From Eledone cirrhosa (lineage: Eukaryota): DNA of 64,000 nucleotides. The notes beneath the pieces were generated by a model that was not told the origin of the DNA, searched no databases, and was given only the letters and a program-made list of their open reading frames with translations. Positions 1,206-51,827 of the stretch are shown piece after piece. Numbering within the stretch: the first letter of the stretch is position 1; the number at the start of each line of letters is the position of its first letter. Location: the NCBI GenBank assembly GCA_964016885.1, contig OZ024755.1:28334001-28398000 (forward strand). Reading direction: 5' to 3'. The translations under genes were made by a program, and so were the position numbers.

Positions 1206-1460
1206 TGTTGATTTAAAACTGCACTATTCACAAGTGTTTTTTAACCTTCATATAATGTCTCCCTATTTTATCTGACGAAAACGCAAATGTCATCGCATGA
1301 TGATATTTGTTTTTGAAATGCACATAATAAAATACATGGAACTCTTTTAACCATCTTTTGATCGTATATATTATTTATACTCCAGTCCTACAAACTGTAG
1401 AGTGCTACTTATCCGATATCTGCATTGCTTTAGTGTACTACAATAAAACTCACCTCCTAC
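1206..1460 (+). mobile_element. Family A (TA)n-associated hammerhead element (probable Penelope-like pLTR)
   Basis: Near-identical to 7172-7586 and 49822-50226; contains hammerhead 1264-1334 and bulged hairpin 1379-1403; runs into (TA)n. Confidence 0.75.
1264..1334 (+). ncRNA. Type I hammerhead ribozyme (family A)
   Basis: UAUUUUAU-CUGACGA-stem II-GAAA-UGCACA-UA-AUAAAAUA; 8-bp stem I. Confidence 0.8.
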
Positions 1461-2899
1461 ATATATATATATATATATATATATATATATATATACGTAT
1501 ATATGCATATATATATGTATGTATATATTGAAACAATTGTACTATGCAATAAAGTTTCATAACAAGCTGCAAATCTGACTTCCTACTTTCTCTCTCTCTC
1601 TCTCTCTCTCTCTCTCTCTCTCTCTTATATATATATATATATATATATATATATATATATATATATATATATATATATATATATATATATATATATATAT
1701 ACATATATATATGTACACACATATATATTGTTAATTTCCTCCGAACTGAATAGAGCTAATCATTCTATGATGGATGTCGTTGGATATGAAAATACGAAGA
1801 TATTACGCTATAAGCCACATATGCGTGGGACGAGTAAATATCGATTAATTTGATTGATTGAACACACTCATACAAATATGTACCTTAATAATGATATTTC
1901 TATATATATGTACATACAGAAACACTTTCATATAGAGAAAGTCAGAGAGATGCAATCTTTCGTAAGCCTATTGTTTTATTTGTCAAGTTGTATGACTATT
2001 TTTTTGTTTCAAAGAACATCATGTATAAAGATAGCTAGATGGTTTTTACATATGCGCATTATATATATATATATATACACACACATATATATATATATAT
2101 ACATATATATATATATAACGGTGAATTGGCAGTATCGGTGGAGGGTCGGACGCCATGCTTTCCAGCATATATATATATATAGTAAAATTAATAGTGAACA
2201 GAATATCTTTTATGTAACTCTCTCACTCCAATGAATTAAGCGTTTCACCGTAACTATTGTGTTAAAATCTCAACTAACAATAGCACTTGGGAATTGTATT
2301 AGCTTGACCGGAAGTTCGTTGGAATTTCTCCGTTTTAATTAAACTTTATATTCAATTTTAAATAAAAGTCTACGCGAATACATTAGTCACGATTGGATTT
2401 TTGAAAGAACCAAGATCTGAGACTTTGCGCGGCTTTGACATGCTTTACTGGCGCTTATATAAAATGTCCTTCAACATTTCATGGCCTTGTATGGGCACCG
2501 TCTTGATACACAGCATGCCTTGAGCATTTCAAACTGTTTTGTCTATCCCTCTCTGTATTTCAGGGGATAGTTGATGTTTCTAAGGCATGAGAGGGACATA
2601 AAAATAGAGTTAGAGTAAAATTCGACTCCTGTACTAGGCTCATAAATCATGTATCGTCACCCAAATGATGAAAGGCAAATTTTATCTCGGTGGAATTCGT
2701 AATTAAAACGCAGTGAATCGATAGACATACAGAGCCATGTTTAATCCTAAATCCAAATGAGTGTCTATCTTCGACCTTACGAACAACCATTTTCAGTGAA
2801 ATATGCACTTTGTTTGAATGAGATATTACTTATTGTATAAAAAAACATTACGGAACACGCGCTAAACATATTATGTTACGGATACATTTATCAAGGCAC

Positions 2900-3556
2900 T
2901 TACTACATAACAATTGTTTCTACGTTAGGCACAAGGCCAGCAATTACCCAGGGCATTGCTGGTACTTTATTTTATTGACCCCGTAAGGATGAAAGGCCAA
3001 GTTAACCTCAGCGGGATTTGAACTCAGATCGTAAAGGCCCGTAACTCCATGCTGCAAACTATAGCGTCCGACCCTCTAACGATACTGCCAATCCACCGCC
3101 CTTACTACATAATAATGATTTCTTATATAGGCACAAGGCCAGCAATTTTGGGGGAGGGGAAGTCGATTAAATCGACCCCAGTGCGTGACTGGTACTTTAT
3201 TTTATTGACCCCGTAAGGATGAAAGGCCAAGTTAACCTCGGCGGGATTTTAACTCAGATCATAAAGCGGCGTAACTCTATGCTGCAAAGCATGGCGCCCG
3301 ACCCTCTACCGATACTGCCAACCCCCCGCCCTGACTACATAATAATTGTTTCTACTTTAGGCACAAGGCCAGCAAATACCCAGTGCATTACTGGTACTTT
3401 ATTTTATCGACCCTGTAAGGATGAAAAGTAAAGTCAACCTCGGCGGGATTTGAACTCAGATTGTAAAGGGACGTAACTATGCTGGAAAGCCCTTACTACA
3501 TATATAATTGTTTCTACGTTAGGCACAAGGCCAGCAATTACCCAGTGCATTACTGA
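2900..3556 (-). mobile_element. Tandem array of four copies of the dominant tRNA-derived SINE
   Basis: A box TGGCAGTATCGG, B box GTTCAAATCC, body GCCTTTCATCCTTACGGGGTCGATAAAATAAAGTACCAG, ATT tail; units separated by ttactacata. Confidence 0.9.
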
Positions 3557-4633
3557 TTGGTTAATCATTTCAGAAATATACAACAAAGTGGCTAATGCAA
3601 TCAGAAAATTGTACATGCTGATTTCGTAGACTCATTAAAGCGTTGTATATTTGTTCCGGGTCTCTGCGTTCTGTTTTCACACACCACAGAGTCTCACTTT
3701 CATTTCATCAATTCGGTCTCCATAAAAAAAAGTACCAGCCGGCGTAGATGTAACTTTCTTTTCATCTAATTTTCATATATTCGATGTTAAACTGGATCAA
3801 TGAAGGAGCATCCATATATTCCAGTCATATATCTAACCTTATTTTACACACAGAAAATTGTAACCGTTCGTATCTTTTTCATATCTGCATTTATACAGAT
3901 AACTCCACATATATGCCCATGACGGATATACTCCCTTGTATAATTTATTCTCAAATTTGGAAGACTAATTGGAATCATTTATATTTCAAAGCGGACGTAG
4001 GGCGTTAATTAATACCACCATTACATCGTTAATTAATTATTGAAACATTTATTCAATGTAAGCTAACTATCATTCGGTATAGTATTGATTAACATTTAAC
4101 TGTTTTGATTTGCTTCAATCCATTCAGCTGGCAAAAATAAATTATAATTAGTATAAAAGAGGCCTACCTCGTCGCGAGATATGTAACACTAAATATCCCT
4201 GAGAATTAGGTTAATGTACAGGTCTCTGTTGAATGCTCAGCCACCTGCACGTTAATTTTACGAACAGATTATTCGCGTTTTTATATATGGATGTGCTTAT
4301 GTTCATGAACATATGTATATATATATATATATATATATATATATAATGTGTGCGTGTGGATGTATACTCATACACACACACACACACATACACACACACA
4401 CACATATATATATATATATATATATACAGAGAGAGAGAGAGTCGAAGAAAACGACAAACAGAGGTACAAAATGTCATATTAGTTTCAAGCTTTATATGGA
4501 CAAAGGGGAAAGAAAGTTCGACTTACTTTTTGATTCCAGAGTCGGACCAGATCGATACAGATCGAACATTGATCAATAGCGAAACGCGCGTCAATACTCA
4601 ATAGACGTAATGAAGACATAACAAATCGTCCTT

Positions 4634-5156
4634 TTATTATTATTATTATTATTATTATTATTGTTATTCCTTGAATCTCAGTCATTGATGTTGGTTAACT
4701 GGAAAGTCCGTTGGATTGAATATCAAGCCACTACCTGCAGCCTCAGATATTCAGGACGTATCGGAGGGTTCTTGCCGTTCCAAGCAAGCATGCCTTTTGA
4801 AGCGTTCCAAAAAGCGTGAAGGGGCCGATTTTCTTTAACCATCCCTGGAAACCTTTGGAGATAGTCCCCAGTGCGCCTATGACAATCGGGATCACTTTGA
4901 CTTCATGGCAGTTCCAAATCCTTTTCACCTCCTACTTTAGGTCCTGGTATCGGTTAATTTTCTCCCTCTCCTTCTCTTGCACTCTCGTGTCGAACGGGCA
5001 GGCCACATCCACAATCAGGCACGATCTTTTTTCTTTGTCCACAACCACCAGGTCAGGTCTATTGTGTTCCAGTTTTTTGTCCGTCTGTATCCTAAAATCC
5101 CACAGCACCTTCACCTGACTGTTCTCCATCACCGCCTCTGGCCTATGCTCATACCA
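4634..5156 (-). mobile_element. 5'-truncated R4/Dong-like LINE (RLE domain plus 3' UTR) inside (TAA)n
   Basis: WDFRIQTDKKLEHNRPDLVV..IVDVACP..EKINRYQDL*..VIPIVIGALG..LQKACLLGTARTLR; one in-frame stop; (TTA)n on both sides. Confidence 0.9.
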
Positions 5157-5403
5157 TATTATTATTATTATTATTATTATTATTATTATTATTATTATTA
5201 TTATTATCACAATCTGCTAAGCACTACATCTCTATACTCACTGGAAACTATGCATTGAGTACTCACTCTTGTGAGCCTAGAGTAACTGGACGCTACAATC
5301 CCTGGCAACATGAAGGGACGTGTTATTTTTCTCTAAAAACATTTTTTTTCCGATTCTGCTCCGTCCGTCCCGTCCGTCTCTTCAAACTTTCTAATATCTC
5401 ATT

Positions 5404-50226: not shown

Positions 50227-50291
50227 ATATATATATTAATAGAAACAATGAAATAAAAACAAAGAACAAGTTGCTTATATTAAAAAATCAT

Positions 50292-50417
50292 CATTTTACC
50301 ATCATTTCTAGGATGTGTATGTGTTGGTATGTATATCATATAGATCTATGTGAAAATATTACAAGTTATCAGAGGAAATATACATACCTTCACATATACA
50401 TGCTGTCTTCAGAAATG
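50292..50417 (-). ncRNA. Type I hammerhead with very long stem II (family H element 50233-50595)
   Basis: CAUUU-CUGAAGA-about 95-nt hairpin-GAAA-UGAUGG-UA-AAAUG; flanked by inverted repeat 50235-50272/50423-50460. Confidence 0.7.
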
Positions 50418-50814
50418 TAAGGAACTTGTTCTTTGTTTTTATTTCATTGTTTTTATTAATTTATCTTGACTCAGTTTTCCTATTATTTTCATCGAAAATT
50501 TTTGAATGTACATTCTCTTTTCATGATATTTGGATTACATTGAGTTCTTCATACGGATTGGGCACTACCGTATATTTTGGTAGATTTATCTACATATATA
50601 CATATATATATATATATATATATATATATATATATATATATATATATATATATATATGTGTGTGTGTGTGTATGTATGTATGTGAATATATGTGAATATA
50701 TATATAGTGTGTGTGTTTGTGTGTGTAAACATCAACAAACATACAGAGTTCATCTATATGAGTGTCTATATATATATTTTTAAGATCCAAATTCAATAAA
50801 CAAACCAGGATTTT

Positions 50815-50872
50815 TTCATTCTGAGGATTGAAAGCAAAACCTTTTGCTTTTAAGAAACCACTGGTAAATGGA
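50815..50872 (+). ncRNA. Type I hammerhead ribozyme (family F element 50780-50970)
   Basis: UUCAUU-CUGAGGA-UUGAAAGCAAAA CC UUUUGCUUUUAA-GAAA-CCACUGG-UA-AAUGGA; all three stems pair; GUA triplet. Confidence 0.88.
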
Positions 50873-51827
50873 ATAATTGCCTTATGTTGTTTATTACATA
50901 ATAATAATTAAGCTCTGTTGCTTACATAGAGCACTCTTTTTTCCTGGACTTTTCCGACGGAATTACTTCATATATATATATATATGAAAAAATGGGGAGA
51001 AGAATACTGCAGGTTGCACATGGATAACATGTTATAAAATGAGTCCCTCATCAGTGATTTGCCAACGGTCATAGATATTTCATTGCATTAAAAATCATAT
51101 ACCTCACGAAGGTGCAATAATAACTAAATTAAGTTATTAGGACAATTAAAACGCGTAAAGCGAGTGAGACAAGTAACAACAAAGAGGAAAGCTAACCGTA
51201 GATAGGAAAGACACAAGCTACATAGTTATTCTATCAGATAAGCTGGGTGAATATATGAGCGCGTAGAAAATAGACCTTTCGAGATGAATCCAATGTAAGA
51301 AAGAAGGAAATTGTTTTCGTCGCGAACGGGGTGAAGTGAGAAGGGGAGAAACATGTGAGTGAGTGAGTGAGTGAGTGGAAGTGTGAGGAAGAGGTCAGTA
51401 GAGAGAAAGTGTTAACTGACATGACAGAGGGGGCGAAAGAAAGTGAGAGAAACAGAGAGAACGAGGGAGCAGTAAGAGAGAGAGAGAGAGAGAAAAACAA
51501 TCGCAGTTTAGGTAAATATATGTGAAAAAATGGGGAGAAGAATACTGCCATATATATATATATGTATGTATCTTTCTATAATTGTATCTATATGTATGTC
51601 TATGGAAGGATATCATACGAATATATACAAAGCTATTTAGAAAGAAAGTCAATATAAGCCGGTGGGAAAACAATTATACACATGCTATCGCGTTAATCTT
51701 ACAGAAATTATTCGCAAGAGTTGCAAATGATTGAAGAAAAAAAAATACCCAATATCTTGAATGTGGGAAGAAGCGACGAGAAAGTACAATTAAAATGTTA
51801 GAGGAAACAATGGACAATGAATACATT

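Follow-up and report, generated by a model that had tools for sequence, protein, structure and literature searches.

Hairpin copies in the Eledone cirrhosa window

The window analysed here is a stretch of 64,000 nucleotides of the Eledone cirrhosa genome (assembly GCA_964016885.1, contig OZ024755.1, positions 28,334,001 to 28,398,000 of the forward strand), AT-rich and laden with microsatellites, in a genome of 3.0 Gb. It holds repeated copies of a bulged hairpin associated with hammerhead ribozymes, and we find this hairpin to be a real, non-chance, conserved, covarying and duplicated cis element of Hydra-clade Penelope-like retroelements (PLEs), the position of which is fixed to the 3' ends of insertions and not to the ribozyme. 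A preliminary description of the window had listed 13 such stretches in seven families (A, B, C, E, F, G and H), and all 13 agree with it in letters, coordinates and strand. Many copies end in (TA)n just before the hairpin nearest to the hammerhead (hairpin 1) and are called tail-less here; others end 40-120 nt after hairpin 1 and are called tailed. A second hairpin (hairpin 2) was seen for families A, C, E and G outside the window, in continuing copies elsewhere, which are given below by their locus numbers.

Family A is represented by a type I hammerhead on the plus strand (1272-1326, core to cut site), followed by hairpin 1 (1379-1403, plus) and a tail up to the (TA)n junction at about 1461; hairpin 2 and the start codon were seen in loci L025 and L142. 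A second hairpin 1 of this family (7230-7254, minus) belongs to the tailed arm of an inverted pair, with its hammerhead at 7361-7307, and the tail-less family A arm at 7484-7585 (plus) has a hammerhead and ends, as far as this approximate end can be placed, just before the place of hairpin 1. The third (49883-49907, minus) follows a hammerhead at 50014-49960 and has a tail-less partner on the plus strand ending near 50230. In family B, hairpin 1 (27966-27999, plus) is preceded by a degenerate hammerhead core from 27875, cut after 27913, and its tail ends at about 28061; a Hydra ORF (open reading frame) lies upstream in L270 and L289. Two B-like hairpins are found in short stubs lacking a hammerhead, one of them folded back (5753-5786, plus) and the other at 30519-30552 (minus). 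Hairpin 1 of family C occurs at 29726-29749 (plus), with a tail-less inverted arm on the minus strand ending near 29664, and at 49502-49525 (plus), with the 3' half of a hammerhead at 49454-49476 and a tail-less inverted arm; hairpin 2 and a Hydra ORF are present in L369.

Hairpin 1 of family E (39163-39222, minus) lies in a 593-bp retrozyme unit with a U3-A8 hammerhead at 39387-39308, a tail end at about 39066 and a tail-less arm on the plus strand from about 39442. That of family F (50912-50932, plus) follows a hammerhead at 50821-50866 and its tail ends at about 50970; an F-like hairpin 1 (5571-5591, minus) stands in a fold-back stub with a tail-less arm on the plus strand ending near 5655. 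Family G shows hairpin 1 at 48859-48880 (minus), a hammerhead at 48976-48938 and a tail end at about 48788, with hairpin 2 and a Hydra ORF in L326, L330 and L334. The stretch at 50469-50545 (plus) had been taken for a decayed family H; it is a long-insert hairpin 1 with its first inner pair broken here, intact in other copies, with a tail-less inverted arm on the minus strand ending near 50236 and a Hydra ORF upstream in L405, L407, L410 and L411. One inner pair is likewise broken in each of the copies at 7230-7254 and 49502-49525. Furthermore, the window contains two copies that had not been listed, namely hairpin 1 of a further Hydra family, Y (63141-63186, minus), with a tail-less partner on the plus strand ending near 63747, and a decayed hairpin 1 of another family (39610-39649, minus; GAG to AAG), with a hammerhead at 39757-39710 and intact copies in L021 and L118.

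The hairpin had been placed about 46-58 nt after the hammerhead cut in families A, B, F and G, and we measured 52, 52, 45 and 57 nt respectively; in family E the distance is 85 nt (86 in the preliminary description) and in family C, cut after 49476, it is 25 nt (about 28 before). A fixed spacing to the hammerhead is thus ruled out, since the distance varies from 25 to 85 nt. Five of the listed copies (B at 5753 and 30519, C at 29726, F at 5571, and H) have no complete upstream hammerhead in the window, because they are 5'-truncated or inverted.

In order to ask how often the motif would arise in AT-rich DNA, its strict form was counted in 310 kb of unselected genome, where it occurs 36 times as against 1-10 times in each of 10 local shuffles. 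Moreover, (TA)n is found 30-110 nt past the motif in 26 of the 36 occurrences, as against 0-2 for each of 14 control patterns. Chance in AT-rich DNA is ruled out by these shuffles and control patterns. Rfam at gathering score found no family matching the hairpin in the window, with one weak tRNA-like match only, and no match on 10 external loci at an E-value of 0.5; the best 150 of 282 matches by E-value in the window are microsatellite look-alikes of microRNAs. No relatives were found in viral contigs.

Carrier elements

In family A a PLE ORF, a 3' region of 1.2 kb, the hammerhead and the hairpin follow one another in unbroken sequence, a link also obtained by tblastn. Families B, C, G and H have the same type of ORF on the same strand as the hairpin, as detected with a profile of 28 related proteins, and a further family, X, has a single 712-aa reverse transcriptase (RT) ORF with a C-terminal endonuclease region, homologous to Hydra proteins. 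According to the preprint text of Craig et al. (2021, 10.1101/2021.04.23.441226), DKT and a CxCX5C linker are marks of the Hydra clade. Indeed, DKT (from DKG) stands at 114 in L131 (family X) whereas the Neptune-type control L101 has DKG, and the protein of L152 (family Y) has neither exact DKG nor DKT. The CxCX5C linker is present in L131, L152 and L139 (family A), and a CX2-5CxxC linker was found only in two motif-less control families. Judged by these protein motifs, the carriers of the hairpin are Hydra-clade PLEs.

The carriers insert into (TA)n, have inverted truncated copies and a one-sided tail, and bear a type I hammerhead on the sense strand of the pseudo-LTR (long terminal repeat), which was matched by descriptor in A, F and X and read by eye in B, C, E, G and H; Rfam did not detect these hammerheads in the window. 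Variant cores are predicted for several of them, with U3-A8 in C and E and U4 replaced by C in most B copies seen, and the family H hammerhead is predicted to have a stem II insert of about 100 nt. In family F none of 30 loci continues past the tail, and the one nearby Hydra match is not contiguous; its hairpin and tail resemble those of family X. No RNA run was present among the matches listed for family A in sequencing runs.

Family E consists of tandem units with periods of 593, 593 and 573 bp, a type I hammerhead and a longest ATG ORF of 48 aa; on these features it is read as a derived, protein-less non-LTR retrozyme of 593 bp. It retains both Hydra hairpins, with insertion ends before each, which would tie it to a specific helper clade.

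A link of the motif to Neptune-type elements, first suspected, is ruled out. Following the hammerhead, the motif was found in 0 of 14 informative copies of the L101 family and in 0 of 7 of the L139/L356 family (both with the CX2-5CxxC linker and two ends), and motif copies near the ORFs of these elements are nested insertions. Over all hammerhead clusters the motif was seen in 5 of 17, a count made with a descriptor that misses most B, C, E, G, H and Y hammerheads. The L101 family (Neptune-type; about 1119-1200 in the window) has a U3-A8 hammerhead core and two 3' ends, and a CCAC-containing, C-rich sequence is found after both ends; it is possible that this sequence is a clade-specific counterpart of the hairpin. 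The other family (L139 at 1227, minus; L356; L362) combines a hammerhead with a tail about 60 nt long and has no RCUC hairpin. In L146 and L149 (minus), a tandem retrozyme of about 470-475 bp has a short look-alike with a C-G outer pair after the hammerhead, and the motif rule is matched in 0 of 8 copies. Finally, a hammerhead family at 820-920 of the window (minus) and in L381 has a short end that, compared with a continuing copy, falls 7-9 nt ahead of a GCUC. That GCUC has no GAG partner in range and is possibly a diverged hairpin.

Structure and covariation

In order to measure pairing, 80 non-redundant instances were chosen by CUC and UNGAG only, with no pairing rules and with a few mis-anchored rows included. 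Because MAFFT failed on hairpins of variable length, covariation was counted from the anchors, with no covariance model, and compared with 5000 shuffles. The first inner pair is Watson-Crick in 68 of the 80 (C-G 48, U-A 20), while the shuffles average 39.9 and reach at most 54. Inner pairs 2, 3 and 4 are Watson-Crick in 40/71, 25/47 and 15/36 instances (18.2, 11.8 and 9.1 in the shuffles), and slid controls are at chance (12/66 against 11.6, 14/66 against 15.3). The outer pair, counted over 51 clusters from the same genome, is A-U in 22, G-C in 14, A.C in 3, G.U in 1 and other in 11 (Fisher p 4e-7 on the four named classes); hence the covariation of G-C with A-U noted in the preliminary description holds, except in family E.

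The two-nucleotide 3' bulge was also confirmed, but its restriction to UA or UU was wrong, since the 80 instances have UU 47, UC 18, UA 13 and UG 2 times. Furthermore, the unpaired 3' flank after the stem is conserved (A 66, C 74, U 72, C 44 and U 68 of 80), and the fuller motif is RCUC-Y..R-UN-GAGY followed by a conserved unpaired RCU(N)Y. Pairing of this flank with upstream bases gave no signal among the 80 instances. As regards GAGYRCUC as a dimerisation palindrome, the fourth flank base is C in only the 44 instances just given.

A tree was made from 31 ORFs, after removal of one mis-anchored row and of rows shorter than 250 aa. Along its well-supported branches, hairpin 1 changed its first inner pair from U-A to C-G or back four times or more, and this pair is formed in 29 of the 31 rows. 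Thus, kinship alone does not explain the covariation. The earlier proposal of a structure-selected cis element is supported by covariation in rows chosen without pairing criteria, by these compensatory switches and by conservation in other hosts.

Duplication and conservation in other hosts

The external set consists of 93 Hydra-type ORF loci, mostly 37-51% identical, from marine metagenomes and from animal contigs in bacterial bins. Among these, loci L247-L262 are animal-type Hydra PLEs in (TA)n repeats on contigs filed in bacterial genome bins, and are likely host contamination. Fifty external loci have at least about 100 nt before the ORF; one or more hairpins precede the ORF in 46 of them, and two or more in 32. 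When near-copies are merged, one or more hairpins are present in 39 of 42 non-redundant 5' regions and two in 27. The antisense strand gave 5 of 42, and ORF windows of the same size 1 of 350. The hairpin of L177 (minus), from another host, has a loop nearly identical to that of family A at 1379-1403, with a G-C outer pair against A-U.

The layout consists of the hammerhead, 40-57 nt (8 elements), hairpin 1, and hairpin 2 starting 55-90 nt later (30 elements), a spacing that is longer in B, E and H; from the end of hairpin 2 to the start codon there are 15-51 nt (30 elements). Since both hairpins lie 5' of the start codon they are non-coding, and coding constraint is ruled out.

In published Hydra consensus sequences, compared by eye where they were available, the motif is exact in Hydra-2_Amil, Hydra-1_Ajap and Hydra-2_Ajap. 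Both hairpins are present in Hydra-1_Ajap, the consensus of which starts 2 nt before hairpin 1. Variants occur in Hydra-1_Obim and Hydra-1_Crog, and the Hydra-1_Amil consensus stops before the motif; one variant consensus has GCCC/GGGC, a compensatory change of the core, its other copy being mismatched. Three exact 9-mers gave at least six matches in the supplement of Craig et al. (584 kb of text, in which line breaks may hide others), four at Hydra termini, one in a Naiad file and one in a Chlamys file.

Insertion ends and the role of the hairpin

The (TA)n junctions of 11 families, mapped on one reference per family, fall at -10 to -1 of hairpin 1 in 193 of 208 cases, with 13 at -50 to -11 and the remaining 2 at 0 or beyond. 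All 16 ends mapped in other hosts are found at -8 to 0 of the nearest hairpin. A prediction drawn from these hosts, that tailed ends adjoin the second hairpin, held in family A (26 junctions, -6/-4), family X (4, -2) and family Y (19 of 20, -3/-2), and ends seen by eye in continuing copies lie before hairpin 2 in C (-3), G (-5 to -7) and E (-6 to -8).

An AT-rich stretch precedes each hairpin, and this could favour a reading in which the hairpins serve translation control, ribonucleoprotein packaging or ribozyme folding, the ends being nearby only via AT-rich microhomology with (TA)n; the short distance from hairpin 2 to the start codon would suit such a role as well. However, TAT/ATA words are more numerous farther upstream (31 in the far 35 nt before hairpin 1, 22 in the near 10 nt) and are hardly used there, and retrozyme E, with no ORF above 48 codons, keeps both hairpins with ends before each. 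Moreover, the spacing to the hammerhead varies and that to the ends does not. We consider this reading highly improbable.

At these sites 5' junctions are not enriched (2 of 35), hence the mapped ends are true 3' ends; for the same reason there is no support for copying of one unit length that halts where it began, nor for a later insertion of (TA)n there. Furthermore, no copy contains the hairpin that sets its own end, and this hairpin must therefore be recognised on the template or on an intermediate. Comparison of the sequences suggests that the hairpin is probably an RNA binding site, which positions the RT of the element to start copying just 5' of it. The RT-endonuclease would bind the hairpin and its unpaired RCU flank on uncleaved tandem or circular RNA, nick (TA)n DNA and prime on UA-rich bases that lie 2-9 nt before the hairpin on its 5' side. 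A start at hairpin 1 would give a tail-less end and a start at hairpin 2 a tailed end that includes hairpin 1, so that the PLE "tail" would be the spacer between the two hairpin sites. The preliminary description had suggested an RT recognition or priming signal on the cleaved RNA. The first part fits the data and can be sharpened, as the motif is duplicated and its reference point is the 3' end of the insertion (1-10 nt away) rather than the hammerhead cut (25-85 nt away). The cleaved RNA as template is unsupported, given that both hairpins lie near the 5' end of the linear RNA cut by the hammerhead; long copies would therefore need an uncleaved tandem transcript or a circle.

If the hairpin were read on an intermediate, the motif could act as DNA: the GIY-YIG endonuclease would bind a single-stranded or more-than-unit DNA intermediate, cut a few bases away and trim the end. 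The constant spacing to the ends suits a cut at a set distance, and the text of Craig et al. (10.1101/2021.04.23.441226) ascribes the tail to endonuclease-mediated resolution of an intermediate; the Drosophila Penelope tail is required for endonuclease recognition of plasmid DNA, as cited in the text of PMC11167929. In contrast, the covariation requires a single-stranded fold, cutting of double-stranded DNA should leave 5' junctions at these sites, of which there are only the two mentioned, and tail boundaries of the lizard PLE in vitro are described in PMC11167929 as RT start sites on RNA. This makes a role as DNA unlikely.

The ends scatter over 2-9 nt, often with two positions per family, which resembles UA-rich priming more than a sharp cut. 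This bears on a further explanation, RNA processing, in which the RNA is cleaved, or its 3' end formed, a short way upstream of the hairpin and under its direction; the RT would then begin at the new RNA 3' end, as ordinary non-LTR elements do. Genomic ends and covariation would be expected to look alike in both cases, and read ends in RNA-seq match the start sites in the lizard PLE (text of PMC11167929). According to the same text, however, the lizard protein began copying at internal positions when the template had a longer 3' end, and the hairpin has no Rfam family match; RNA processing appears quite improbable to us.

Binding of the RT to the hairpin can be extended to inverted copies. Head-to-head pairs comprise 130 with one tailed and one tail-less end, 4 with both tailed, 1 with both tail-less and 9 unclassified. 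One end of each kind is thus present in 130 of 135 classified pairs, a figure weakened by the fact that most A, B, C, E, F, G and H loci were collected with tailed queries, so that tail-less pairs were excluded by selection; in four families not selected for the tail it is 24 of 26 (p 5e-6). If both sites were used in a single event, on the two strands of the target, inverted insertions with a one-sided tail would result. More tentatively, with doubts slightly outweighing confidence, two copies of the RT-endonuclease may hold one Hydra RNA at both hairpins and prime from both nicked (TA)n strands at once.

Several observations weigh against a binding site for the RT. The support for a function of the Hydra hairpin consists of positional and comparative evidence, and the 31-ORF tree is a quick one, the careful tree search being unfinished. 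Folded in isolation, nine hairpins are weak (z between -2.86 and +0.71); C and Y adopt another fold, and the bulge is missing from that of F. No pairing signal is found beyond the 4-bp outer stem (30 of 80 against 32.3), and the CUC/GAG core is almost invariant, so that core pairing rests on the flanking pairs. The outer pair of family E is an A.C mismatch in 21 of 21 copies. As a test of an RNA against a DNA fold, G.U outnumbers A.C by 13 to 7 (p 0.13), hence a single-stranded DNA fold is compatible with the data, as the endonuclease explanation would have it. The motif is missing from 3 of the 42 external 5' regions, and no second hairpin was found for B, F and H, with no continuing copy among 30 loci each. 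In addition, the two motif-less PLE families of this genome described above have two ends without the hairpin; thus, the motif is no general explanation of PLE tails.

Other features of the window

Tandem copies (103-230 bp) of an abundant SINE-like (short interspersed nuclear element) repeat are present at 2959-3375, 23763-24175, 36888-37491 and 44318-44713, and a 24-bp minisatellite of about 43 copies, open in several frames, at 54054-55078. The stretches at 56855-57376 and 58816-59130 (both minus) presumably resemble the C-terminal endonuclease region of a non-LTR retrotransposon.

Relation to known systems and meaning

In hepadnavirus epsilon, the 3' structures of R2 and L2 and the template-boundary elements of telomerase, a structured RNA binds its cognate RT and sets the start or stop of copying. 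The Hydra signal would differ from these in that the start of copying is not within the hairpin but 5' of it, the signal itself stays uncopied in the event that it directs, and it is duplicated at about 60 nt; matches in sequence or structure to these elements were checked via Rfam only.

Hammerheads, (TA)n targeting, inverted copies and one-sided tails are known for Hydra PLEs from the text of Craig et al. (2021, PMC8557442 / 10.1101/2021.04.23.441226), and the carriers agree with that clade in ORF features, (TA)n insertion, pseudo-LTR hammerhead, inverted 5'-truncated copies and a tail on one end. The tails given there are 30-40 bp long, as against the hairpin spacing of 55-90 nt found here, longer in B, E and H. 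The searched text of this preprint and its supplement does not describe the hairpin, and no description was found in the full-text literature searched, a search outside which lie some figures and supplements and most subscription journals. Hence, the elements are already known and the hairpin signal appears to be new.

The only PLE tested in vitro is PAc, a Poseidon element of the lizard Anolis. According to the text of Frangieh et al. (2024, PMC11167929), copying by its RT begins at two internal sites, which form the boundaries of the tail; cleavage and extension take place on both strands of the target, the protein is predicted to dimerise, and insertion is unaffected by mutation of the hammerhead. 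PAc is thus similar in that its two start sites lie on the 3' side of the hammerhead and delimit the tail, and in the cutting and extension of both target strands. It differs in that it belongs to another clade and its sites lie inside the ORF in an AC-rich stem-loop, with no duplicated or covarying signal reported in the part of the text examined (PMC11167929). Family E in turn resembles metazoan non-LTR retrozymes (PMC7229834; 10.64898/2026.07.22.740005) in being tandem and protein-less with a type I hammerhead. The portions of these two sources that were examined name no cis signal beyond the hammerhead, whereas E has both Hydra hairpins.

In vitro work on PLEs covers a single element so far. 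A motif that is compact, duplicated, covarying and constant in its distance to both ends allows direct tests, by moving or mutating 20 bases, of how PLEs choose the start of reverse transcription and why their tails are one-ended, and the hairpin offers a marker for retrozymes dependent on Hydra enzymes as well as a point of comparison for template handling by telomerase, the sister RT group. If two protomers do hold the RNA at both hairpins, one duplicated 20-nt motif would account for the PLE tail and its presence on one side only, for the inverted stubs, for the requirement of a tandem or circular template and for the mobilisation of protein-less retrozymes. It would also be the first RNA signal for template positioning to be defined in the RT class to which telomerase is sister.

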